A DNA stretch of 64,000 bases, taken from the NCBI GenBank assembly GCA_040219355.1, contig JAVJSN010000015.1, positions 382,708-446,707 on the forward strand, in the 5' to 3' direction. Shown here piece after piece: positions 51,188-64,000 of this stretch. Position 1 is the first letter of the stretch. Each line of letters begins with the position of its first letter. The position numbers and the translations under genes were made by a program. A model generated the notes under the pieces. That model ran no database searches, was not told the DNA's origin, and saw only the letters and a program-made list of their open reading frames with translations. This DNA comes from Hyphomicrobiales bacterium. Its GTDB lineage: Bacteria; Pseudomonadota; Alphaproteobacteria; Rhizobiales; MH13.

Positions 51188-51293
51188 TCCAAGAGGTGCG
51201 ATACAGCACCGCGTCAATCCGATTTTTCTTCACCAGGTTCGCGCGATATGTAAGGGTTGCCTTAGGTAATCGCGTATCGTCCAGGACCGGTTG

Positions 51294-52052
51294 ATGAACC
51301 ATTCTTTGCCACAGGCGTCGTTTCGTACGCGCTGTGATCAGTGTTCCATTCATAACAGAGCCATATGCAGCCGTGCGTCATCTGCGGCGGCGCAAGAACT
51401 GCAGAATCTTAGCCGTATCCGCCGGTTTTCCGCCGGTCAGGTGATCATCGCGGAGCATACTGAGAGCCTGTTCATGGGCAATGTGGTTACGGGGATGGTC
51501 AAGCTGTGCAAAACGCTTGAAGACGGTCGGCAGCAAGTTGTCGGGCTTCTGTTCCCCTCTGATTTTTTTGGCCGCCCGTTTGAAGAACAGTCACCTTTTT
51601 CTTTTGAGGCGGCGACCGACGTTGAGATTTGCGTTTTCGAGCGCCAAGCCTTTGAGGCTCTGCTCGCACGCTTTCCGGAAGTCGAGCATGAGTTGCTGGT
51701 TCAGGTGTTGACCGAGCTAGACGCGGCGCGTGAGTGGATGGTGCTGCTTGGCTGTCAAACCGCCCGCGAGAAGGTGGCAAGTTTTCTGCTGATGCTGTTG
51801 CGCAGATCTGGTCTTATGGGCTGCGATAAAGCCGATACTCCCGAGGCGCGCATTGTTACAGTTCCTGTGAGCCGGAAGGATGTGGCGCTCTATCTCGGCA
51901 CGACACCAGAGACTGTTTCGCGGCAAATTCAGTGGATGTCGCGCAATGAAATTGTGCGCATTATCGACAGTCAAACCTTCGCGGTTCTTAGTCCACAAAG
52001 GTTGGCGCACGCCGCTTCGCGCGAAGAATGGCTGGATGAGCTTAGCGCTTAG
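51294..52052 (+). CDS. Crp/Fnr family regulator, FnrL/FnrN type with Fe-S cysteines
   Basis: N-terminal C-x2-C-x7-C (CDQCSIHNRAIC) plus the central EICVF Cys; GRQQVVGLLFPSDF; ELDAAREWMVLLG; recognition helix TPETVSR. Confidence 0.88.
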   Translation: MNHSLPQASFRTRCDQCSIHNRAICSRASSAAAQELQNLSRIRRFSAGQVIIAEHTESLFMGNVVTGMVKLCKTLEDGRQQVVGLLFPSDFFGRPFEEQSPFSFEAATDVEICVFERQAFEALLARFPEVEHELLVQVLTELDAAREWMVLLGCQTAREKVASFLLMLLRRSGLMGCDKADTPEARIVTVPVSRKDVALYLGTTPETVSRQIQWMSRNEIVRIIDSQTFAVLSPQRLAHAASREEWLDELSA

Positions 52053-52074: not shown

Positions 52075-54459
52075 TTATCTGGCCGATTTTTCTGCCTCAG
52101 CGACATTCGCTTTGACCGCCAGAAAGCTGTCCGGCGTGACCGATATGCTGTCGATCTTCGCTTCGACCAAAAACTTGGCGAACGTTGGGTCGTTGCTCGG
52201 TGCCTGACCGCACAGGCCAACTTTGGCGCCGGACTTATGGGCGCGTTCAATCACAGTCTCGATCATCCATTTGACAGCTGGATTCTGTTCTTCAAAGACG
52301 CCGGACAGATGCTCGTTGTCGCGATCCACGCCAAGCGTTAGTTGGGTCAAATCGTTGGATCCAATAGAGAAACCTGAGAAGCGTTTGGCAAATTCTTCGG
52401 CCAGAATAACGTTGGATGGCACCTCGCACATCACATAGATATCAAGGCCGTTCCTACCGCTTTCCAGGCCGTTTTTCGCCATCACATCAAGCACCAGATC
52501 GGCTTCTTGTGGTGTGCGGCAGAATGGGATCATGACCAATACGTTGGTGAAACCAAGGTCATCACGTAGGTGGCGGATCGCCTGACATTCCAGGGCAAAA
52601 CCATCGCGATAGATGTCGGCATAATAGCGCGATGCGCCGCGCAGCCCGATCATCGGGTTTTCCTCGTCCGGCTCAAACGCGGAGCCGCCAAGCAGCTTGG
52701 CGTATTCGTTGGTTTTGAAGTCGCTCATCCGCACTATCGCCGGGTTGGGATGAGCAACAGCGGCGATGCGCGAAAGGCCTCGGGCCAGCGTTTCCACGAA
52801 ATAGTGCTTCTTGTCGTCGTAGCCGCGTGTCAGCGCCTCGATTTCTTGCTTGTCGTGGACATCATGCAGTTTGTCGAAATTGACCAAGGCCATCGGGTGC
52901 ACTTGCACGGCGGAATTCACCACAAACTCCATGCGGGCCAGGCCAACGCCGTCTGATGGCAAGCGCCACCAGCGGAACGCCGAGGCTGGGTTGGCCAAGT
53001 TCAGCATGATTTTCGTTTTGGTGTCGGGCACATGGTCGAGCTTGATGTCTTCGACGTCAAAATCGAGATAGCCCTGATATATATCGCCTTGCTCACCACC
53101 GGCGCATGAGACCGTCACTTTCTGCCGGTCATGCAAAACATGGGTGGCATCGCCCGTGCCGACGATGGCCGGGATGCCCAATTCGCGGCTAACGATGGCG
53201 GCGTGAGATGTGCGCCCGCCATGGTCGGTGATGATGGCTGCGGCCCGCTTCATAATGGGCACCCAGTCGGGATCGGTTGTTGAGGTGACCAGGACAGACC
53301 CATCAACAAACTGCTCAATGTCTTGGGCGCTTTCAATGATGCAGATCGGCCCTTGTGTGACCGCGTTGCCGACGCTCAAGCCGCTCAAGATCGGCTTATC
53401 CTTGGTGTTGAGCGTGAAGTTTTTCATCACGTGATGGTCGGCGCGCGATTGCACGGTTTCTGGCCGTGCCTGGACGATGTAGAGCTCGCCAGTCTCCCCA
53501 TCCTTGGCCCATTCCATATCCATCGGTTGGCCGTAATGCTTCTCGATGGTTGCGGCCTGACGCGCCAGGGCGACGATTTCTTCGTCGCTCAAGACAAAGC
53601 TCTGCTGCTCGCGTCTAGAGGTTGGAACATTGATCGTCTCGCCGCCTTCTTGGCCGGCATAGATCATCTTTTGCTCTTTTTCGCCCAGGCGCTTCTCAAC
53701 GATTGGGCTAAGGGATTTGTCATCAAGGAACGGCTTAAACACCTGATATTCATCTGGGTTTACGGCGCCTTGCACGACGTTCTCGCCAAGGCCCCATGCG
53801 GCGTTGATGAGAACGACTTTGTCGAAACCTGTTTCGGTGTCGATGGAGAACATCACGCCTGAGCCGCCAATGTCAGAGCGGACCATGAGTTGAACCCCGA
53901 CCGAGAGGGCGACCTTCTTATGGTCAAAACCTTTCATAGTGCGGTACATGATGGCGCGATCCGTGAAGAGCGAAGCGTAGCACCGACGACAGGTGGCAAG
54001 CAGCGCCTCGGCACCGCGAACATTCAAGAAAGTCTCCTGCTGGCCGGCAAAGCTGGCATCGGGCAAGTCTTCTGCGGTGGCGCTGGAGCGCACAGCAACG
54101 GACAGGTCGTCAGCGCCGGTGCGTTTCTTAAGTTCATCAAACTGAGCGACGATGTCATCGCGCAAATCCTGCGGCCAATCGCCGGCGACGAAAGCCTTGC
54201 GGATGTGCTTGCCAGCTTCCTGAAGCGTCATCTGTTTGCTGGCCAACTGTCGCAGTGTTTCGTCCAACACGCTATCCAGGCCATTGTGCTTGACGAAACC
54301 TCGGAAGGCGTCAGAAGTGGTGGCAAAACCAGGTGGCACCTTGATGCCCGCGCTCCCCAACTGCTGCACCATTTCGCCAAGTGAAGAGTTCTTGCCGCCG
54401 ACAAGGCTAACGTCGCCACGCGAGAGTGTGTCAAACCATATGATGTTTTGCGTGCTCAT
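52075..54459 (-). CDS. ppsA: Phosphoenolpyruvate synthase
   Basis: VGGKNSSLGEM, VRSSATAED, FAGQQET, QARPETV, GGRTSHAAI (phospho-His), RMSDFKTNEY, IGSNDLTQL, CGQAPS. Confidence 0.96.
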   Translation of the reverse strand: MSTQNIIWFDTLSRGDVSLVGGKNSSLGEMVQQLGSAGIKVPPGFATTSDAFRGFVKHNGLDSVLDETLRQLASKQMTLQEAGKHIRKAFVAGDWPQDLRDDIVAQFDELKKRTGADDLSVAVRSSATAEDLPDASFAGQQETFLNVRGAEALLATCRRCYASLFTDRAIMYRTMKGFDHKKVALSVGVQLMVRSDIGGSGVMFSIDTETGFDKVVLINAAWGLGENVVQGAVNPDEYQVFKPFLDDKSLSPIVEKRLGEKEQKMIYAGQEGGETINVPTSRREQQSFVLSDEEIVALARQAATIEKHYGQPMDMEWAKDGETGELYIVQARPETVQSRADHHVMKNFTLNTKDKPILSGLSVGNAVTQGPICIIESAQDIEQFVDGSVLVTSTTDPDWVPIMKRAAAIITDHGGRTSHAAIVSRELGIPAIVGTGDATHVLHDRQKVTVSCAGGEQGDIYQGYLDFDVEDIKLDHVPDTKTKIMLNLANPASAFRWWRLPSDGVGLARMEFVVNSAVQVHPMALVNFDKLHDVHDKQEIEALTRGYDDKKHYFVETLARGLSRIAAVAHPNPAIVRMSDFKTNEYAKLLGGSAFEPDEENPMIGLRGASRYYADIYRDGFALECQAIRHLRDDLGFTNVLVMIPFCRTPQEADLVLDVMAKNGLESGRNGLDIYVMCEVPSNVILAEEFAKRFSGFSIGSNDLTQLTLGVDRDNEHLSGVFEEQNPAVKWMIETVIERAHKSGAKVGLCGQAPSNDPTFAKFLVEAKIDSISVTPDSFLAVKANVAEAEKSAR

Positions 54460-54536: not shown

Positions 54537-54950
54537 TCATCCCCACTGACTGGCAAGTGCGCGCAGGGCGTCTGTGCGGCTGAGCTGCCCGACAAGCTTG
54601 CCGCCATCCATTACGGGAAAGCGGCGAAAGGGTTTTTCAATGAATAGATTTGTCGCGCTGATGACATCCATGCTTGCTTCAATGGTCGCCACCGGATGGC
54701 TCATATAGGCCTCAACGCGCCCGCCCCAGTCGCGGTAATAGCTGGCATCCAGAGCGGCTTTCAGGCAGTCGCGCTTTGTTAAAACGCCAATGAGAAATCC
54801 TTCAGAGTCGAGCACTGGTGCGCCAGATATCCGCCGATCGAGCAGAATGTTCATCGCACGGTTGATTTCCATGTCCGGTGTCAGCGTCACCAGATCTTTG
54901 GACATGAAGTCGGCAACCAAGGGCAGGGAGTCCGTGGTTCTGGCGCTCAT
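54537..54950 (-). CDS. Stand-alone tandem CBS-domain protein
   Basis: VADFMS, ISGAPVLD, GVLTKRD, RRFPVMD.GKLVGQLSRTD. The start overlaps the nqrM stop (ATGA). Confidence 0.9.
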   Translation of the reverse strand: MSARTTDSLPLVADFMSKDLVTLTPDMEINRAMNILLDRRISGAPVLDSEGFLIGVLTKRDCLKAALDASYYRDWGGRVEAYMSHPVATIEASMDVISATNLFIEKPFRRFPVMDGGKLVGQLSRTDALRALASQWG

Positions 54951-55120
54951 GGCTCTCGCTCCAGCATTTTTTTGTTGGGGCAGGTGGCACACTCAATGTT
55001 TTTCAGGCAGGCCACACCGCCACATGATCCTTCAATCGGTTTGCGCCCAGCCATAACGCCGACTGCCAAACCTGCGATTGCTAGGGCAAAAATCGTCAAT
55101 GCGAACAGGAAGATCACCAT
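54947..55120 (-). CDS. nqrM: Na+-NQR maturation factor NqrM (DUF539), 57 aa, absent from the ORF track
   Basis: Hand-translated as MVIFLFALTIFALAIAGLAVGVMAGRKPIEGSCGGVACLKNIECATCPNKKMLEREP: one TM helix, GRKPIxGSCGG and 4 Cys. AGGAGG RBS; directly downstream of apbE. Confidence 0.9.
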   Translation of the reverse strand: MVIFLFALTIFALAIAGLAVGVMAGRKPIEGSCGGVACLKNIECATCPNKKMLEREP

Positions 55121-55126
55121 CGCCTC

Positions 55127-56101
55127 CTAGGCCACGACATGGTCGGAGAAGCTGCCGGTCATGGTTTCGTCCAATCCATTGTCGGTGCGTGTCAGGAAAA
55201 GAGCTGAGACGGCCAGCTCAGATGCACATTGAATGCCGCGTTGCGGTCCAAGGACCATGAGTGCGGTAGCCAGTGCATCGGCGCGTATGGCCGTCGGTGC
55301 GAGAACTGAAACCGCAGCAAGGCTATTGTCTGTTGGGCGTAGATCGCTGGGGTCGATAAGATGACTGAGCGCCACACGGCCGCGATAGCCGTTCGCGCTG
55401 TGACCGGAGCTTGCCAGTGCCAGGTGTCCTGGTGCGATGATGCGGTGAGCGGTTACCTGTGGTGTGCCCGGCTGTTCGATAGCGACCTGCCAAGGACGAC
55501 CCATAGGGTGCTCGCCGATGGCAGAGACTTCTCCGCCAAGCTCAATCAGCGCGCTTGTCACACCTGCGCGGTGTAGCAAGTCTGCAATCTCATCTAAGGC
55601 ATGCCCTTTGGCGATCCCACAGAGGTCAAGCGTTAGGTCATGATGGGCTTTGCGAACCGCTCCATTCTCAACAATGATTGCTTTGTAGGAGCCGGAACCA
55701 CCGTTAATCGGGCCAAACCCAAAGCGAGCAACGGCTGGCCCGACGGTTGGATCAAAGGCGCCGCTGGTGATCTCGGCAACAGCAAGGCTTTCGGCAACAA
55801 CGTGGCAGACATCGCTGGGTAGAGGTTGCCATGCGGTGGTAGCGTTGCGATTGAACCGCGAAATGTCGGAGTCGTTGCGCCAGGGGGACATTTGCTCATC
55901 GACCCGCTGGATGATCGCTTCGACAGGAGGTCGAAGCAGGCGTTCATCCAAGGTGGCCCCGCCTGCTATGCGCCATGTGCTTGCAAAAGCACGACCGCCG
56001 AAGGAGACGGTTGCTGCCTCAGCCTGTGAAGCAAAACCAAGCCCAAAAGCAGCGGTCCATGCCGCGCCGCCTGCCACAAAACTGCGCCGTGTCACGGGCA
56101 T
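55127..56101 (-). CDS. apbE: FAD:protein FMN transferase
   Basis: Twin-Arg signal (TRRSF), SDISRFN, GAFDPTVGP, LDLCGIAKGH, ELGGE, LASSG, HLIDP, ADALATAL. Confidence 0.93.
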   Translation of the reverse strand: MPVTRRSFVAGGAAWTAAFGLGFASQAEAATVSFGGRAFASTWRIAGGATLDERLLRPPVEAIIQRVDEQMSPWRNDSDISRFNRNATTAWQPLPSDVCHVVAESLAVAEITSGAFDPTVGPAVARFGFGPINGGSGSYKAIIVENGAVRKAHHDLTLDLCGIAKGHALDEIADLLHRAGVTSALIELGGEVSAIGEHPMGRPWQVAIEQPGTPQVTAHRIIAPGHLALASSGHSANGYRGRVALSHLIDPSDLRPTDNSLAAVSVLAPTAIRADALATALMVLGPQRGIQCASELAVSALFLTRTDNGLDETMTGSFSDHVVA

Positions 56102-56103
56102 CG

Positions 56104-57324
56104 CTACACTCCGAAATCGTCGTTGAAGATGTGGTCGCGATCGACACCCAGATCGTCCAGCATCTGAAAAACAGCGCGGATCATCAGCGGTGGACCACAG
56201 AGATAGTATTCGCAGTCTTCAGGCGCAGGGTGGTCGCGCAGGTAGGTCTCCAGCGCCACCTGATGAACGAAGCCAACGGCGCCTTGCCAATCATCTTCTG
56301 GCTGCGGATCGGAGAGCGCGACTGTCCAGTCGAAGGTGTCGTGCTCGGCTGCAAGTGCATCCAACTCATCGACGTAAAGCAATTCGGCCTTGCTACGTGC
56401 GCCATACCAGAAAGTCATGCGACGCCCGCTTTTCGTAATGCCCAGCTGCTCATGGATGAGGGCGCGTAGTGGCGCCATGCCGACCCCACCGCCGATGAAC
56501 ACCATTTCCTTGCCGGTCGGTTGCGCACGGAAGCTGCCGAAGGGACCGGATGTTGTGACCTCCTGGCCCGGCTTGAGAGCAAACAACCAAGACGACACGA
56601 TACCGGGTTGTACTTGCGGTTCGGAGGGCGGTGGCAGGGCAAGGCGAATGTTCAACACCACACGGCGGGCTGCTGTGTCTTCGGGTCGGTTGGAGATGGA
56701 GTAAGCGCGGGTAACGTCCTCTTCGCTTTGAACCGATAGGGATCGCAAAGAGCGCCATGCGTCCTTATGGCCGTCGGGCGTGTCAATTGTCGCGTAATCA
56801 AGCGTGTAAGGCGGTGCGGTGACCTGAACATAAGAGCCGGCAACAATGCTAGCATCGACATCATCAGGCAATTGCAGCACGATTTCGCGGATAAGCGGGG
56901 TAAGTGCGGTAACCGAATGTACCGTGCATGTGTAGCTGGTCGCGCCCACCCACTCTTGCGGGGCCTCGACAGCCATATCGTCGCGCAGGGTAACCTGGCA
57001 GGCCAGATGCACACCGTCTCGGCGATCAGCGTTGGAAAGCTGCGCAATTTCAACTGGTAGGTGAGATTGATCCTCGCCGACCACCGTGATCCGGCACAGT
57101 CCGCACGTGCCTGCGCCAGCGCAGGCCGAGGGCACCAGCACATCATGATCATGCAAAGCAGCGAGCAGTTTTTGCCCGGTTTTGACGTGGAACTCGGTTG
57201 AGCCATTGACCGTCAGGACTGCTGGCCCCGAGGGCATCAAAACGCCACGGGCGATCATCACCATGGCGGTCAAAACCAGAACGACGCAGACGATCAGCAC
57301 TGTGCCAAAGAGGATGACGCTCAT
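56104..57324 (-). CDS. nqrF: Na+-NQR subunit F (2Fe-2S, FAD, NADH-binding)
   Basis: N-terminal [14 protein letters not shown]...[32 protein letters not shown]. Confidence 0.93.
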
Positions 57325-57920
57325 AGGCCCACCCCGGCAAATGCAGAAAAGCCGAGCGACATAAGGCCGGTAACAATGAAGGCGATCCCTAGGCCCTGAA
57401 GACCAGCGGGAATGTTGGCGTATTTCAAGCGCTCACGGATTGCAGCAAAGGCGATAATTGCTAGGGCCCAGCCGAAGCCGCTGCCAAACCCGTAGACGAT
57501 GGACTCGCCAAAATCGTACTGACGCTCGACCATAAACAGACTGCCGCCAAGGATCGCGCAGTTGACTGTGATCAGCGGCAGAAACACGCCAAGCGCGTTG
57601 TAAAGAACCGGCACATACCGATCCAGCGTCATCTCCAGCACCTGCACGAAGGCGGCAATAACGCCGATGAATGCGATCAATTTGAGATAGGTGAGGTCCA
57701 TCTCGGGCAGCCCGAGAAAGCCCCAAGCACCTTCGACCAGCAGGCCGTTGAAGATGAGATTGTTGAGAGGAACCGTCAGCGTTTGGACGGCAACGACCGC
57801 AATGCCCAGGCCAACGGCGGTTTCAAAGCGTTCTGAAACGGCCAGGAAGGTACAGACACCCAAAAAGAAGGAGAGCGCCAAGTTCTCTTGGAAGATCGCT
57901 GCGAGAAGAAGGTCGCTCAT
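57321..57920 (-). CDS. nqrE: Na+-NQR subunit E
   Basis: [40 protein letters not shown]. Confidence 0.93.
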
Positions 57921-58582
57921 GAACGTCCCCCGGCAGATTTCAGCGAAGGGTGCAATTTGAACTTCGGCGCTTCGATCTGCGCGGTCCAGCGCGTGCGGAT
58001 GACCCAGATAAGCAGGCCAATGATGAAGAACGCGGCTGGTGCCAGCTGCATCAGGCCAAGCGGTTCAAACCATCCGCCATCGGCAACGGTGACGAAGACG
58101 GTCTGGCCAAATAGTGTGCCCGCTCCAAGAAGTTCACGGATGCCGCCCACAAGCATAAGAATGAGGCTGTAGCCGAGCCCATTGCCGAGCCCATCCAACA
58201 CCGATGGGCCTACTGGATTGCGCATCGCGAAGGCTTCCGCTCGGCCGAGCACGAGGCAATTGGTGACAATGAGGCCGACAAACACCGAGAGCTGTTGGCT
58301 GATCTCAAAGGCAAAGGCTTGCATCAGCTCGTCAATTACGATCACCAGCGATGCGATGATGGTGATCTGAATGATCAGTCTAATGCTGGTGGGAATGTGG
58401 TGACGTATCAGGCTGATGATCGCCGATGACATGCAAAGCACGGCGGTCAGCGCGACCGACATCATGGCGGCTGTTGTCAGCGAGGTTGTAACCGCCAAAG
58501 CCGAGCAGATGCCTAGGATTTGGAGTGTGACAGGGTTTTCCTTCACCAGCGGCGTGGTGAGATGGTGGGCCCAGCGCGCCAT
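57917..58582 (-). CDS. nqrD: Na+-NQR subunit D
   Basis: [53 protein letters not shown]. Confidence 0.93.
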
Positions 58583-59374
58583 CTACAGTCCCTCCTCGGC
58601 AAGGCGATCAAGGAAGGGGCCAAAGCCATTTGGGCCCATCCAAAAGTGCAGGGCAAACGTGACACCATCGCCGGTGCGGGTGGCACCGGAAAGGCCGTCG
58701 ACTTCATGCACGCTCTGCGCCTGGCCACGAACGACCTCGATGACAATGTCGCCCTCCTCATTCAGAAGCTCTTTGCCTGGCCAGAGGCTTTGCCAGTCCG
58801 GTTCTGTGATACGAGCACCAAGCCCAGGCGTTTCTGCCTGTTCGGTGATGGTCAGCGCTGCGACCGTGGAAAGGTCTGGTTCCAGGGCCAACATAGCGCG
58901 GATGGTCGACGCGTAGCCGCTGCCATAAACTGGCAGAACAATGAGCAGCAGATCGCCATCGCGTTCCAGCAGGTGGACGGGTGCATAGAGCGGACGCCGT
59001 CGGATGCTCGCCAGATCATCGTCTGTAGGGATAGCAACCGATAGCTCTGGATCAGTCGCGGCGGCCACAAAATCGTATGTGGCCGGATCAATGTCTGGTG
59101 CGAATTGACCGGTTTGCAGATCAACAATGCGCGTTTCTAACGCTGTCACGCCGGCTTCTTCCATGACCTGACGCATGCCTGGAAGCGTGTCGAGCATGGA
59201 TTCCATGCGGGCGGCTTGCTCAGCGTCAATTTGGGCTTGCTGAATAGGGCCGAGCAAAACCGAGGCGGTGGAGACGAGGATCGCGCAGACAAAGGCCACC
59301 AGTGCCGCGATAGTGACTGTTTTGGTCGTGTCGTCGTTGGGCCGGGCAAACAGAGCGCTGACAGGATTAGGCAT
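58583..59374 (-). CDS. nqrC: Na+-NQR subunit C (covalent FMN)
   Basis: N-terminal TM (ALVAFVCAILVS), PVYGSG, ETPGLG, and the flavinylation motif DGLSGAT. Confidence 0.92.
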   Translation of the reverse strand: MPNPVSALFARPNDDTTKTVTIAALVAFVCAILVSTASVLLGPIQQAQIDAEQAARMESMLDTLPGMRQVMEEAGVTALETRIVDLQTGQFAPDIDPATYDFVAAATDPELSVAIPTDDDLASIRRRPLYAPVHLLERDGDLLLIVLPVYGSGYASTIRAMLALEPDLSTVAALTITEQAETPGLGARITEPDWQSLWPGKELLNEEGDIVIEVVRGQAQSVHEVDGLSGATRTGDGVTFALHFWMGPNGFGPFLDRLAEEGL

Positions 59375-60245
59375 CGTGCTTCTCCGCGTCGCGTTTCTCT
59401 CCAAAGCGTTTTTTCCAGTGTGCCTCTCTGCGGCTTTCCCGGACATAGGCGTTAGTGAGCACGGCAAGATGATCGAGCAGCGGGGCAAAGATGCTTGCCA
59501 AAAGCGCTGCAAAAACAAGGGCTTCAGCCTTTAAATCAGCCGTCGCGAAACCTGAGAAAACAGCGATAAGGAACCCTGCCAACGCGCCATAGGCCCAGCG
59601 ACCGGGATTGGTGCAGGCCGCGCCTAATGGGTCGGCAATGAGGAACACCAAGCCAACGGAAAGAGCGATGGCGAGTGTTTGCATTAATCCAAATTCGCCA
59701 AGTAGTGCCATCGCAGCTGCGGTTATTACCAGGGTTGCGACCAAGACACGCCAGGAGATCAAGCCGGCGAGCAGAAGCAGGATTGCACTAGGAATGGCGG
59801 CCAGCGCGACCGTTACGTCGACGGACTGCAAGGCTAGCTGAGGGAAGGAAAAGACCAAAAGAGCGAGCGTGGCAGCTGCCGGGTTCACAAATCCAAAGCC
59901 GCGTCCACCAAATACCAGTTCGCCCAAAACAACGCCCAGCGAGACCGCGACGGCCAATTGCCAAGTTTCAACGCCCAGTGGCACAAACAGCGTGATAAGC
60001 ATGGCCGTTGTAAGTCCGTGTAAGGACATATCGGCGTGGCGCAAAAAAGCGAAAAGGTTCTCCCAAGCCAGCGCAACCACAAGGCAGGTTAAGAACACCG
60101 GAACAAGCAGTGGCCCTCTGTTGGCAAAATCCATGGCCAGAGGAAATGCCAAAGCTGCGGCCTGTAGCAGGCTCACGCGTCCAGCGCTGAAGAGGAAAGG
60201 CAGCAGTGCCGCCGATTGAACGGTTGGGCGTTGAAAACTGGCCAT
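59367..60245 (-). CDS. nqrB: Short NqrB/RnfD-family subunit (292 aa) lacking the FMN-carrying loop
   Basis: WENLF, GELVFGGRGFGFVNP, SWR, ADP, T..GRWAYG, FAPLLDH, at the nqrB position between nqrA and nqrC. No SGAT motif. Confidence 0.82.
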   Translation of the reverse strand: MASFQRPTVQSAALLPFLFSAGRVSLLQAAALAFPLAMDFANRGPLLVPVFLTCLVVALAWENLFAFLRHADMSLHGLTTAMLITLFVPLGVETWQLAVAVSLGVVLGELVFGGRGFGFVNPAAATLALLVFSFPQLALQSVDVTVALAAIPSAILLLLAGLISWRVLVATLVITAAAMALLGEFGLMQTLAIALSVGLVFLIADPLGAACTNPGRWAYGALAGFLIAVFSGFATADLKAEALVFAALLASIFAPLLDHLAVLTNAYVRESRREAHWKKRFGEKRDAEKHDA

Positions 60246-61570
60246 CAGGCGGCGTCCTCGGCCAACTCATCGAGCACTGAGCGCAGCAAAACACAGTAGT
60301 CGGCACCGCTTGTGCAGATCATGTTCAATGCCGCGACATCTTCTTCGACCAGATCTAATGCACCGAGTTGCTTGGCCGCCTGCGCGTCGCCGACGCTTAG
60401 TGCGCGCATCATCGGCACTGCCAGCACATCGGCGGGGAGGGCGCGATCCATCACGATGTTTGGGATGAGTGACGCGGTGGAGTTGGAACCGAAGAAAGGC
60501 AGGCGCGATGTCCAAGATGGGCGTAGCCCGCGCTTTCGATTTGAAAGGACGCTCACTTGGCTGTGATAGCGGCCAAGATAGCTGAGCTCGCGACCGGTAA
60601 CCGCCGACCCCGACAAGGTGCGGGTGCTGCCATGGTTGGCGGCTTGTGGTTTTAATTCACCTTCGATGAGGCCGCGCAGGCTTGCGCCGAGTTTTGTCGT
60701 CAGAAGACGTGGATTTGTTAGCTGTTCACCGCTTAGCGCAATCACCCTTGTGGCATCGTACCGCCCGGTTAAAAACAAGGTTCCGATGGCTATCACGTCC
60801 TGATACCCGATGCTCCACACGGGCAGATCTGGTGAAGCGGGTGAAAGTCGATGGATGTGCGTCGACGCCAAGCCCGCTTGATAACTACCACCAAAACGGG
60901 CTGTTCTGATTTTCAGGGTGTCAGGCGCTTGGAAGCTGCTCGCCTTATGTTGGCAGACAAAAACCTGCCCATCCGTGAGCTTGGCCAACACTTCAAGGCC
61001 GTGGCGAAAAGCATCCGCATTGTCGGCGATCACAGGGTCGGGATTGGCAGCACCTGGAGATAGATCAATGGCTGACACGAAGATGGCGACTGGGTTCTGG
61101 GCAGATGGCGGTATCAGTCCGAAGGGGCGTGATCGGAAAGATGGCCAAAGCCCGCGCGACAAAAGGACGTTGCGAACGTGCTGACGCGATGGCGCATTGA
61201 TGGCAACCGGTTCAGCGGAGGATTGGCTTTTCTCGTCCTTCCCGTCTTGATGACTGGCTTGGGCGCGGACCACGATTGCCGACAAGGTTCGTCGTGGTCC
61301 GTAGTCGATGGAAAACACACGTCCGCTGATGGGTGAGGCGAAGCAAATCGCGTCATCCTTGCGATCAACAAAAAGAGTTTGCCCTTCGTCCACCTGCTCG
61401 CCGACATCGACCAGAAAGCGTGGGCGCATGCCCGGATAATCCGTCCCAAGTAGAGCAGCCGCAGCGACGGACACGGATTGATCAATCACTTGCGATGGCG
61501 CACCAGGCGCGGAAAACCGAAGACCGTTTCGCAAAGAGACGGGCTTCAACGGTTTGCGTTCAAACGACAT
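60245..61570 (-). CDS. nqrA: Na+-NQR subunit A (divergent)
   Basis: DYPGMRP, GQTLFVDRK, FASPISG, GPRR, GLWPSFRSRPF, YQDVIAIG, YLGRYH.Q, LVEEDVA. Confidence 0.9.
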   Translation of the reverse strand: MSFERKPLKPVSLRNGLRFSAPGAPSQVIDQSVSVAAAALLGTDYPGMRPRFLVDVGEQVDEGQTLFVDRKDDAICFASPISGRVFSIDYGPRRTLSAIVVRAQASHQDGKDEKSQSSAEPVAINAPSRQHVRNVLLSRGLWPSFRSRPFGLIPPSAQNPVAIFVSAIDLSPGAANPDPVIADNADAFRHGLEVLAKLTDGQVFVCQHKASSFQAPDTLKIRTARFGGSYQAGLASTHIHRLSPASPDLPVWSIGYQDVIAIGTLFLTGRYDATRVIALSGEQLTNPRLLTTKLGASLRGLIEGELKPQAANHGSTRTLSGSAVTGRELSYLGRYHSQVSVLSNRKRGLRPSWTSRLPFFGSNSTASLIPNIVMDRALPADVLAVPMMRALSVGDAQAAKQLGALDLVEEDVAALNMICTSGADYCVLLRSVLDELAEDAA

Positions 61571-61636: not shown

Positions 61637-61650
61637 TTGACCGGCGTCAA
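61637..61650. promoter_or_regulatory. FNR/FixK-type box TTGAC-N4-GTCAA between the divergent nqrA and cytochrome c genes
   Basis: TTGACCGGCGTCAA is a perfect 14-bp palindrome, one base per half-site away from TTGAT-N4-ATCAA. An Fnr gene lies in the same block. Confidence 0.72.
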
Positions 61651-61725: not shown

Positions 61726-62847
61726 ATGTGCTTGCCAAAGCTGCGTCTGCCCAAAATCTTCGTTGTTTCCGTTTTGACGGCCTTGATCGGGCTGCCGATC
61801 AGCCACGCTGCGGCGCAAGACGATGCGGGAGAGACCGCGATTCTTCAGCTACAAGGTATTGTCGAGGCCTGGCTGTCTTCACCGCATGCTGACATTACCA
61901 GCCAAGCCTTTCATCACTGGGATGAAGATGGCGAAATTCCCGCTACATGCGCGACCTGCCACACGAGTTTCGGTTTCATTGAATATGTGCGTGGCGCCAT
62001 GGACCAGGCAGGCATTGCGCCGCAAGCCATGCCAACAGGTGGCGTCGTTGATTGCGCAGCTTGCCACAGTGAGGCATCCACCGCGCTTGTGAGCGTTCCT
62101 TTTCCATCGGGTGTGAGTGTTGATACGTTCGGCAGCTCTGCCACCTGCGCCGTTTGTCACCAGGGGCGTGCGGCGGGTTCAACCGTCGCTGCTGCAAGTG
62201 AAGGCATGGATGAGGACACCGTGTCGGAAGACCTCGGTTTTATCAATGTGCACTACGCGCCATCGGCTGCAACGCTGATGGGATCGGTCACGTCCGGCGG
62301 ATTTGAGTATGAAGGCCGTGAGTATCGCGGTCAGTTTACGCACGTGCCTGATTTTGCGACCTGCACCAGTTGTCACCAGCCGCATAGCTTGGAACCAGTT
62401 GCAATGGAGACCTGCGCGACTTGTCACCAAGAGGCCGAAACGTTTGAAGACATTCGCACCACCCGTATCGATGTGGATGGCGATGGTGATATGTCTGAAG
62501 GCATTGCCGACCCGATCCACACCCTGCACGAGCGTCTCTATGCGGCCATTCAAGCCTACGGCACGGATGTTGCGGGCACGGCGATCATCTATGCCGATCA
62601 GTTTCCTTATTTCTTCACCGATACCGATGGCGATGGCGCTGTTAGCGAAGGCGAAGCGGCTTTCCCCAACCGGTATGCGTCGTGGACGCCGCGCCTGTTG
62701 AAGGCAGCCTACAATTACCAGTTCATCGCCAAAGATCATGGGGCGTTCGCACACAATCCGCACTATGCACTCCAGCTCCTTTATGACAGCCTGGAGGATC
62801 TTAGCGGACAGGTTGACGTGGACATGGCTGCGATGGCGCGCCCGTAA
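61726..62847 (+). CDS. Periplasmic pentaheme cytochrome c (alternative start at 61690)
   Basis: Sec signal (..HAAA/QD), five CxxCH motifs (CATCH, CAACH, CAVCH, CTSCH, CATCH), two DxDGDG loops, C-terminal GAFAHNPHY. Confidence 0.92.
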   Translation: MCLPKLRLPKIFVVSVLTALIGLPISHAAAQDDAGETAILQLQGIVEAWLSSPHADITSQAFHHWDEDGEIPATCATCHTSFGFIEYVRGAMDQAGIAPQAMPTGGVVDCAACHSEASTALVSVPFPSGVSVDTFGSSATCAVCHQGRAAGSTVAAASEGMDEDTVSEDLGFINVHYAPSAATLMGSVTSGGFEYEGREYRGQFTHVPDFATCTSCHQPHSLEPVAMETCATCHQEAETFEDIRTTRIDVDGDGDMSEGIADPIHTLHERLYAAIQAYGTDVAGTAIIYADQFPYFFTDTDGDGAVSEGEAAFPNRYASWTPRLLKAAYNYQFIAKDHGAFAHNPHYALQLLYDSLEDLSGQVDVDMAAMARP

Positions 62848-62888: not shown

Positions 62889-64000
62889 ATGGAAGACGCC
62901 CACTCTCATGCCCTTGTGCTGGTCGCCATTGGTGTCCTGTTTCTAGGCGGGTTGGCACTTGATGCTTTTGGCCGGATTGTCCATGTTCCGCGTGTAACGC
63001 TGCTCATGCTTCTTGGTGCTTTGCTGGGACCGCCCGTTTTGGACGTGCTTCCAAACGCGATCGCTGGCGGCAATCCGATCTACACTGATCTTGCGCTGAC
63101 AATGGTTGCCTTTCTGCTCGGCAGCTCGCTAAGCCGCCAGACCTTGGCGGCCCACGGTCGCGAAATTCTTGTCGTTTCGATCATCGTCGTGTTGGTTTCC
63201 ATCACGCTGGTGGCAGGTGGGCTCTACCTTCTGGGCGTGCCGCTGCCCATCGCGCTGTTGCTGGGTGGGATATCGGCGGCCACCGCACCTGCTGCGACGC
63301 ACGATGTCATCCGGCAATCTGGCAAGACGGGTAAGTTCGTTACCAACTTGACCGGCATCGTGGCCATTGACGATGCATGGGGGCTGCTTGCTTTTAGCGT
63401 GCTTTTAACACTGGCTGCGCTTCTGGTTGGTAATGGCGCTGATGGTGGCGCCTTGTTCCAGGCTTTTTATGAAGCTTTTGGTGGCATTGCCTTGGGATTG
63501 GCGATTGGTCTGCCCGCCGCTTTCCTCACAGGTCGTTTGAAGCCAGGCGAACCTTCGCTTGTTGAGGCGATTGGCGTGGTGATGCTGTGCACCGGTCTTT
63601 CGCTTTATTTTGAAGTCTCGTTCCTTTTGACGGGCATGGTGTGCGGTGCGGTGATTGTGAACTTTGCCCGCCACCATGAACGGCCGTTTCACGAAATCGA
63701 ACGCATCGAATGGCCTTTTCTTTTGCTGTTTTTTGTCATGGCCGGTGCGTCGCTGCACGTGGAAGCGTTGATGGCGCTTGGCGTTGCTGGTGTGGGCTAT
63801 TGTGTGCTGCGATTTGGTGCGCGCCTTGTCGGTGGATGGCTTGGTGGGCGTGCATCGGGGCTGTCGTCGCAAGAAGGCGTTTTAACAGGTATGGCACTGA
63901 TGCCCCAGGCCGGGGTGGCCATCGGCATGGCGTTGGTTGCCAGCGATCACTTTCCGCAATACCGCGAAACGTTGGTGACGATCACGATTGCCAGCACGAT
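62889..64000 (+). CDS. Cation:proton antiporter (CPA, Na_H_Exchanger family), 3' end outside the window; absent from the ORF track
   Basis: Hand-translated as MEDAHSHALVLVAIGVLFLGGLALD...SAATAPAAT...IVAIDDAWG...PQAGVAIGMAL. The frame is open to the window end. Confidence 0.88.
   Translation, partial: MEDAHSHALVLVAIGVLFLGGLALDAFGRIVHVPRVTLLMLLGALLGPPVLDVLPNAIAGGNPIYTDLALTMVAFLLGSSLSRQTLAAHGREILVVSIIVVLVSITLVAGGLYLLGVPLPIALLLGGISAATAPAATHDVIRQSGKTGKFVTNLTGIVAIDDAWGLLAFSVLLTLAALLVGNGADGGALFQAFYEAFGGIALGLAIGLPAAFLTGRLKPGEPSLVEAIGVVMLCTGLSLYFEVSFLLTGMVCGAVIVNFARHHERPFHEIERIEWPFLLLFFVMAGASLHVEALMALGVAGVGYCVLRFGARLVGGWLGGRASGLSSQEGVLTGMALMPQAGVAIGMALVASDHFPQYRETLVTITIAST

Follow-up and report, generated by a model that had tools for sequence, protein, structure and literature searches.

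The DNA analysed here is a 64,000-nucleotide stretch from a Hyphomicrobiales bacterium (contig JAVJSN010000015.1 of assembly GCA_040219355.1, positions 382,708 to 446,707; hereafter the window), and between 54.5 and 61.6 kb its minus strand carries a packed operon in the order nqrA-B-C-D-E-F-apbE-nqrM-CBS. These genes encode the six subunits of a complex related to Na+-translocating NADH:quinone oxidoreductase (Na+-NQR), followed by a flavin transferase, a maturation factor and a CBS-pair protein. Our subject is the second gene, nqrB (59367–60245, −), an open reading frame (ORF) with a PF03116 match whose 292-amino acid product is a short, predicted flavin-less form of NqrB. An earlier note, made from the sequence alone, had described this ORF, its overlap with nqrA and the overlap of its stop with nqrC, and all three were reproduced: the nqrA stop and nqrB start overlap as TGATG, and the nqrB stop and the nqrC ATG (59374) overlap in ATGCCTAA. 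nqrB is translationally coupled to both neighbours. The operon encodes a distinct alphaproteobacterial NQR-derived complex, nqrABCDEF-apbE-nqrM-CBS, and the finding is real, conserved and probably of functional importance.

The short NqrB is about 120 residues under canonical length. Its match to PF03116 (NqrB/RnfD) scores 111.8 bits against a gathering score of 27.7 and is split, covering profile positions 16–132 and 172–290 of 296 and leaving 133–171 unmatched, and it reaches 119 bits where the NCBIfam NqrB equivalog cut-off is 414. Alignment to the V. cholerae subunit (7xk3_B, 415 amino acids), proposed in the earlier note together with the profile comparison, pairs residues 47–136 with V. 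cholerae 129–218 and residues ~150–269 with ~280–408, leaving the flavin mononucleotide (FMN) loop of V. cholerae NqrB unpaired. The gap from F134-P135 to S164-W-R is 28 residues, compared with 76 from P217 to S294, the corresponding pair in V. cholerae; the earlier note had counted 29 and about 77. About 48 residues are gone (V. cholerae ~223–269), and the flavinylation site DGYSGAT, with T236, goes with them as that note had claimed. E274, which it had also placed in the lost block, lies outside the deletion; its column is retained, reading V in the window protein and P, Q or L elsewhere in the family. The junction left by the loss, located by aligning the protein to NqrB of V. cholerae and of Alphaproteobacteria and to RnfD, falls at residues 136–143 (LALQSVDV; 59817–59840, −).

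Scans of the protein with the motif [ST]G[AS][ST] and the relaxed D..[ST].[AP][ST] found no match anywhere, in agreement with the earlier note, and no conserved flavinylation motif was found across 118 short database homologues of 251–297 amino acids, the set used for all residue counts below. T145, which that note had raised as a flavinylated residue that might be retained, is T in 10 of the 118; being unconserved, it is no concealed flavinylation site. S133, S164, T212 and S251 were likewise rejected, since the conserved ones among them lie outside any Dxx(s/t)GA(T/S) context; T212 is conserved in canonical NqrB too. SGAT-like strings appear sporadically, in 10–11 of the 118 homologues, at non-homologous positions and chiefly in a DPxSAAS stretch at D346. 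Aligned jointly with NqrB from V. cholerae, 42 canonical NqrB from Alphaproteobacteria and 10 RnfD, the short NqrB shows four deletions relative to canonical NqrB, at N-terminal ~5–30, at ~79–121, and at V. cholerae 223–269 and 323–330. The first two remove NqrB-specific features that are likewise missing from RnfD, while the segments lost in the last two occur in both NqrB and RnfD. The N-terminal amphipathic region, described earlier as short, proves in the alignments to lack its helices. At the other end, a highly charged C-terminal tail, RESRREAHWKKRFGEKRDAEKHDA (residues 269–292; 59367–59441, −), occurs only here and in the closest relatives of this lineage (P0001); other members of the short family stop about 20 residues before the end of this tail.

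Beyond the FMN loop, the quinone site is also altered. This site is built from a pair of NqrB-specific amphipathic helices at the N terminus (PMC12174285 section 16; PMC10643135), quinone is contacted by L138, G141, F159 and N156, and replacement of G141 disturbs binding of both quinone and inhibitor (PMC10643135). Where V. cholerae has VGGFWE, its quinone/korormicin site, the window protein reads VALAWE (residues 57–62; 60060–60077, −), a change the earlier note had pointed out along with the survival of three acidic residues. The 7xk3_B alignment bears out both: G140 is replaced by A58 and G141 by L59, and E144, D346 and D397 are retained as E62, D205 and D258. F159 reads G. The replacements are shared by much of the short family (A at G140 in 86/118, L at G141 in 81/118, G at F159 in 98/118), and all three positions are invariant in 42/42 canonical NqrB. 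The riboflavin ligands of NqrB are T162, G198, N200, N203, A205, F342 and D346 (PMC10643135, Extended Data Fig. 6). N200 is Gly in the window protein and in 95 of the 118 short homologues, with Asn in one, and N203 is Asn in just 45; neither position varies among canonical NqrB or RnfD sequences. More broadly, the short family keeps 20 of the 59 columns conserved across NqrB and RnfD, and it carries consistent replacements of its own (E for K191, L for R209 and S for N390) together with loss of the PEG motif at 379–381.

This shortened protein is the product of a maintained gene. A search of 5.8 billion protein sequences returned 154 matches, of which the 120 best listed are nearly all 250–297 amino acids long, and an exhaustive search of cluster representatives gave about 100 short-type clusters at 50% identity. 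In a species-level genome scan, at least 144 species encode a short-NqrB relative. These are marine Hyphomicrobiales and Rhodobacterales, and they include Ahrensia, Cohaesibacter, Hoeflea, Aurantimonas, Maritalea, Nitratireductor and Devosia, as well as Yoonia, Sulfitobacter, Boseongicola, Tranquillimonas, Pontivivens and Rhodovulum. The short gene has no internal stops and is the sole PF03116 gene of its source genome, which is 99.4% complete and in which no second NqrB or RnfD homologue was found. Five of 151 sampled genomes of the order carry the short form, and none has both types together; within the window's GTDB genus it is present in three of four sampled genomes, and the fourth has no NqrB of either type. 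Full-length NqrB occurs in some relatives of the same order, in a separate canonical operon and in other genomes, and named Cohaesibacter species have a canonical 402-amino acid NqrB.

Selection on the gene was estimated as the ratio of nonsynonymous to synonymous substitution rates (dN/dS) against the two nearest relatives (dS ~0.5–0.7). For nqrB the values are 0.07 and 0.13, at an unsaturated dS of 0.55–0.63; in the same pairs NqrA gives 0.17–0.18, NqrD and NqrE at most 0.03, and NqrF and NqrC about 0.05. An AlphaFold2 model built on the 118-sequence alignment has a mean predicted local distance difference test score (pLDDT) of 91.7, and it superposes with template modelling (TM) scores of 0.68 on V. 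cholerae NqrB and 0.71 on RnfD. Because this confident model matches both folds, the helical core of NqrB is predicted to be kept. The short NqrB is a real gene under purifying selection, with no decay. The earlier note had taken it for a maintained gene rather than a mis-called start or a frameshift, and had asked whether close relatives hold full-length NqrB beside a neutrally evolving copy; full-length forms do exist elsewhere, the short copy is not neutral, and that judgement is upheld.

We rooted NqrB trees with RnfD, and in these the short proteins form a single clade (Shimodaira-Hasegawa approximate likelihood ratio test, SH-aLRT, 99) on the NqrB side. Pairwise matches agree, at E ~1e-30 to canonical NqrB versus 1e-12 or weaker to RnfD. 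Fourteen representative clusters of 310–381 amino acids join the short clade (SH-aLRT 100), beside canonical NqrB (P0318, at L185:5298–6431, and P0311, P0312, P0329, P0336, P0341, P0342, P0348, P0354–P0356, P0358, P0371 and P0379). These intermediate proteins are without the N-terminal helices and retain the insert between the first two transmembrane helices as well as the FMN loop, and their SGAT motif has decayed, for example to DGFAGTA, GYGGTV or GYAGSD. An early branch that never had the NqrB-specific N-terminal features was considered and rejected, since the intermediate clade groups with the short clade beside canonical NqrB. Because the intermediates have the loop and a decayed motif, the short form is best read as the result of stepwise loss from a canonical-type NqrB, and the alignments indicate an order in which the quinone helices and the flavinylated Thr would have gone first and the loop itself later. 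The interleaving of Hyphomicrobiales and Rhodobacterales in the NqrB tree suggests horizontal spread. At locus L185 the intermediate gene belongs to an nqrABCDEF-nqrM-CBS operon, and the flanks retrieved around it contain no cytochrome gene.

The other subunits are differently preserved. NqrC, NqrD, NqrE and NqrF exceed their NCBIfam equivalog cut-offs (for NqrF, TIGR01941 gives 441 bits against 295), and NqrA and NqrB fall under theirs. NqrF (56104–57324, −) has the domains for a 2Fe-2S ferredoxin centre, flavin adenine dinucleotide (FAD) and NAD(H) (Pfam Fer2, FAD_binding_6 and NAD_binding_1). NqrD (57917–58582, −) is 57% identical to its V. cholerae counterpart and has C26, C109 and D130 where that protein has C29, C112 and D133; NqrE (57321–57920, −) is 63% identical and keeps the equivalents of V. 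cholerae C26, C120 and E95. NqrC (58583–59374, −; 263 amino acids) has an intact flavinylation motif, VDGLSGAT, in which T232 corresponds to V. cholerae T225. At the level of sequence, these conserved ligands and the losses in NqrB show that the input path from NADH through NqrF (FAD, 2Fe-2S) and the NqrD/E 2Fe-2S centre to the covalent FMN of NqrC is intact and highly conserved, and that the canonical return path from the FMN of NqrB through riboflavin to ubiquinone is dismantled.

NqrA (60245–61570, −; 441 amino acids) retains the Pfam domains NQRA_N, NQRA_2nd and NQRA_SLBB and has diverged, scoring 373 against 505 and 296 against 321 for its two equivalog cut-offs. It has no cofactors to take up electrons (PMC12174285). 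Four homologues (P0279, P0284, P0286 and P0297) are predicted as NqrA::short-NqrB fusions of 671–692 amino acids with all three NqrA domains, each either a real fusion or read-through of the one-base TGATG overlap. Because such fusion proteins occur, NqrA and short NqrB appear still to associate. Complex I (NuoH) is encoded in all five sampled genomes with short NqrB, and the short-type NQR would for that reason not be needed as an NADH:quinone route.

We counted neighbours at 80 short-NqrB loci. The order nqrABCDEF is common to 72–80 of them, an ApbE gene is present in 62–66, nqrM in 62 and the CBS gene in 66. In the window, apbE, the flavin transferase gene, lies at 55127–56101 (−; PF02424, 213 bits), nqrM, encoding a 57-amino acid maturation factor, at 54947–55120 (−; PF04400, 23.4 bits against a cut-off of 22), and the CBS-pair gene (PF00571), the last conserved gene of the operon, at 54537–54992 (−), with a true start that may be an ATG near 54950. 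To our knowledge, no CBS-pair gene is counted among the members of canonical nqr operons; one also ends the intermediate-type operon of L185. The CBS-pair protein may regulate the complex by sensing nucleotides.

On the other side of the operon, divergent from nqrA, lies a gene for an exported cytochrome c (61726–62847, +; 373 amino acids from the given ATG) with a signal peptide and five CxxCH motifs. This pentahaem cytochrome adjoins nqrA in 58 of the 80 loci, and in 56 of those it is divergent. In the 151-genome sample it stands next to nqrA in all five genomes with short NqrB, and it is found anywhere in the genome in only 1 of the 146 without. That lone genome (G121, L102:9153–10313) has Rnf instead of a short NQR, and its cytochrome gene adjoins genes for a DAO-type FAD oxidoreductase and an ABC transporter. 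The cytochrome is under strong constraint (dN/dS 0.03 against the two nearest relatives), and its model is confident (pLDDT 92.4). Six His residues outside the CxxCH motifs are conserved, three invariantly and three nearly so, and because of these, bis-His ligation of all five haems is feasible. Fold and profile comparisons gave OcwA (probability 0.95, TM score 0.38) and then NrfA (E > 1), matches too weak to assign the cytochrome a function. Its family is large (2772 matches) and without a name. Chloroflexota homologues of 550–650 amino acids appear to hold the module twice, and in a Caldilineaceae locus (L184:3676–9956) a 651-amino acid homologue comes after two other multihaem cytochromes and a membrane cytochrome b of the Ni_hydr_CYTB family. 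Such a neighbourhood belongs to an extracytoplasmic electron-transfer chain.

Between nqrA and the cytochrome gene is a predicted FNR/FnrL-type box, TTGACCGGCGTCAA (61637–61650, given without strand), common to the nqr operon and the cytochrome gene. Of 51 related intergenic regions, 49 contain a box that fits the consensus at 8 or more of its 10 positions and 39 contain one that fits at 9 or more, compared with 4.5% of random 360-nucleotide segments for the latter threshold. A gene for an FnrL-type O2-sensing regulator lies near the operon (51291–52052, +; cNMP_binding and HTH_Crp_2), scoring 229 bits against NF045989, under the cut-off of 300. Between this gene and the operon is a 794-amino acid ORF (52075–54459, −), assigned from its sequence as a putative phosphoenolpyruvate synthase. 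Directly after the cytochrome gene, a CPA1-type Na+/H+ exchanger (62889–64000, +; PF00999) extends past the window edge; a homologue lies beyond the cytochrome in 34 of the 80 loci, and its position hints at a linked sodium cycle.

Several short-NqrB loci of basal lineages that lack the pentahaem cytochrome have other periplasmic redox proteins beside nqrA. Three of them, L034 (5119–7353), L094 (1435–3331) and L097 (6964–8544), encode FAD_binding_2 flavoproteins exported by the twin-arginine translocation (Tat) pathway together with hexa- or tetrahaem c3-type cytochromes; these flavoproteins resemble fumarate and urocanate reductases. L100 (6707–8510) has a tetrahaem cytochrome and a Tat FMN-dependent dehydrogenase, L073 (6657–7388) a dihaem cytochrome c and L086 (1367–2752) an EB_dh haem protein.

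Taken together, we find it rather probable that the complex derives from NQR and hands electrons from NADH, by way of the FMN of NqrC, to periplasmic cytochromes at low oxygen, with NqrB as a flavin-less scaffold or ion channel. Electrons from NADH would leave at the NqrC FMN on the periplasmic face, where the pentahaem cytochrome c, exported and co-regulated, would take them up; in the basal relatives, the acceptors would be the tetra- and hexahaem cytochromes and the Tat-exported flavoprotein reductases. The complex would then act as an NADH:periplasmic-cytochrome oxidoreductase, induced by FNR at low oxygen. More loosely, NqrB may persist with NqrA as a flavin-less scaffold, a docking site for NqrC or a cation path, and Na+ pumping may persist as well, which the linked Na+/H+ exchanger would fit. 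A sodium-pumping NADH:cytochrome c oxidoreductase that conserves energy, bypasses the quinone pool and has no redox cofactor in NqrB is a more tentative proposal, which we regard as possible rather than probable.

Several observations weigh against electron transfer from NqrC to the cytochrome through a complex with a flavin-less NqrB. We infer the transfer itself from gene linkage and from the parts that are missing. The pentahaem gene is absent from 22 of the 80 loci, some of them on short contigs, and three loci with complete flanks (L080, L082 and L088) have no obvious redox partner. Purifying selection shows that NqrA and NqrB still do something. Part of the riboflavin site is also kept, with T162 in 107/118 and D346 as D or E in 118/118 short homologues and with G198, A205 and F342 mostly kept, and given this surviving part the short NqrB may hold a non-covalent flavin.

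One alternative is a complex that is still an NADH:quinone oxidoreductase, in which the FMN of NqrC docks in the vacated NqrB pocket or a flavin is bound non-covalently, quinone uses a remodelled site, and the cytochrome is independent and only co-regulated. A partly kept riboflavin site (T162, G198, F342, D346) and the selection on both NqrA and NqrB speak for such an enzyme, and in Nqr/Rnf-like systems the extracytosolic FMN has been proposed to sample a non-covalent flavin of the membrane subunit (Huang et al., PMC11334425 section 9). The short NqrB, however, has lost the N-terminal helices of the quinone pocket, replaced G140, G141 and F159, and given up N200 and N203; NqrA is free of cofactors (PMC12174285), and every sampled carrier has complex I. 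Nor would an unrelated neighbour explain why the periplasmic redox proteins beside nqrA differ by lineage, and we consider quinone reduction unlikely.

Slightly less credible again is a complex running in reverse, in which reduced periplasmic cytochrome c would pass electrons through the NqrC FMN, NqrD/E and NqrF to form NADH, driven by the sodium-motive force as ferredoxin reduction by Rnf is. The exchanger linked in 34 loci would suit such a role, multihaem potentials could fall within one Na+ per electron of NAD+, and cores of the RNF/NQR type are reversible in principle (PMC12174285). The basal partners argue in the other direction, being reductase-type FAD_binding_2 flavoproteins and c3-type cytochromes typical of terminal reductases, FNR-type control suits an anaerobic electron sink, and in these heterotrophs complex I is available for reverse electron flow. 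Finally, a decaying or mis-annotated nqrB (wrong start, frameshift or assembly error) in a canonical operon, to which the missing 120 residues and the score far beneath the equivalog cut-off might point, is refuted by identical length and deletions in at least 144 species, dN/dS of 0.07–0.13, coupling on both sides, the lack of stops, the confident fold model and the consistent replacements at once-conserved sites.

Electron exit from NqrC to periplasmic cytochromes, the reading we prefer, would give these bacteria a quinone-independent NADH route to periplasmic cytochromes and reductases at low oxygen, and with it a new way into anaerobic respiration for abundant bacteria of the Roseobacter group and the Hyphomicrobiales. 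A six-subunit NQR that has discarded the NqrB half of its cofactor chain is still selected in well over 100 species of marine Alphaproteobacteria. Many of these are in culture, among them the carriers Hoeflea phototrophica DFL-43, Ahrensia marina and Yoonia maricola DSM 29128. Such an enzyme also amounts to a natural experiment on the debated question whether Na+ translocation proceeds via NqrB and its flavins (Hau 2023) or via the NqrD/E (RnfA/E) pair (Kumar 2025). Should pumping occur with no cofactor in NqrB, Na+ translocation by RNF/NQR complexes would need no NqrB/RnfD flavins, and the coupling site, now disputed, would lie in the NqrD/E–NqrC half. There is a practical consequence as well: automated annotation labels the short genes NqrB or RnfD, and metabolic reconstructions will thereby wrongly credit their hosts with a Na+-NQR quinone reductase.

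The flavin-less NqrB variant is apparently undescribed. We found no description of a six-subunit NQR with such an NqrB, or of its linkage to a cytochrome, in the full-text-searchable literature (PMC4014512, PMC12174285, PMC8238504, PMC11334425 and PMC13399641 among it), with subscription literature outside this scope. Textbooks and reviews, one from 2025 included, regard the four membrane cofactors of RNF and NQR (the NqrD/E 2Fe-2S centre, two covalent FMNs and riboflavin) as strictly conserved (PMC12174285), which does not hold here. The closest known system is the V. cholerae Na+-NQR (PDB 7XK3, 8A1T; PMC10643135, PMC12174285), which has the same six genes in the same order, then apbE and nqrM. 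As in that enzyme, NqrF, NqrD, NqrE and NqrC of the window retain all cofactor ligands, and the short NqrB keeps the ten-helix fold with E144, D346 and D397. Unlike it, the short NqrB is without the covalent FMN site, the quinone-pocket helices and G140, G141, F159 and N200, and the operon adds the CBS gene, the FNR box and the divergent pentahaem cytochrome c.

In place of RnfB, a polyferredoxin, and RnfC, with FMN and 4Fe-4S centres, which mark the Rnf complex, the window operon encodes NqrF and an NqrA-type subunit. Closer in its proposed wiring is the Rnf of Methanosarcina acetivorans, where the multihaem cytochrome MmcA, part of the same transcript, is the proposed acceptor of electrons from the FMN of RnfG (PMC4023990, PMC11024163). 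In both, genes for a core of the RNF/NQR type accompany one for an exported multihaem cytochrome c, and in the Rnf system flavinylated RnfG, the homologue of NqrC on the periplasm-facing side, is the proposed exit. The two differ in that the Rnf donor is ferredoxin through RnfB and RnfC rather than NADH through NqrF, and MmcA is a heptahaem protein encoded within the operon. Two-subunit Nqr/Rnf-like systems offer a parallel for NqrB itself, as their NqrB-like subunit is without the flavinylated Thr (PMC11334425) and one-way flow from NAD(P)H to an extracytosolic FMN subunit has been proposed for them (Meheust 2021, PMC8238504; Huang 2024, PMC11334425). Those systems, which come for the most part from Actinobacteria and the candidate phyla radiation, consist of an NqrB-like domain fused to an NAD-binding domain (PF00175) and an FMN_bind partner, with no NqrA, D, E or F. 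The window system, in contrast, has all six Nqr subunits and a stand-alone NqrB of 292 residues, and its transmembrane path would run through NqrD/E, not NqrB.

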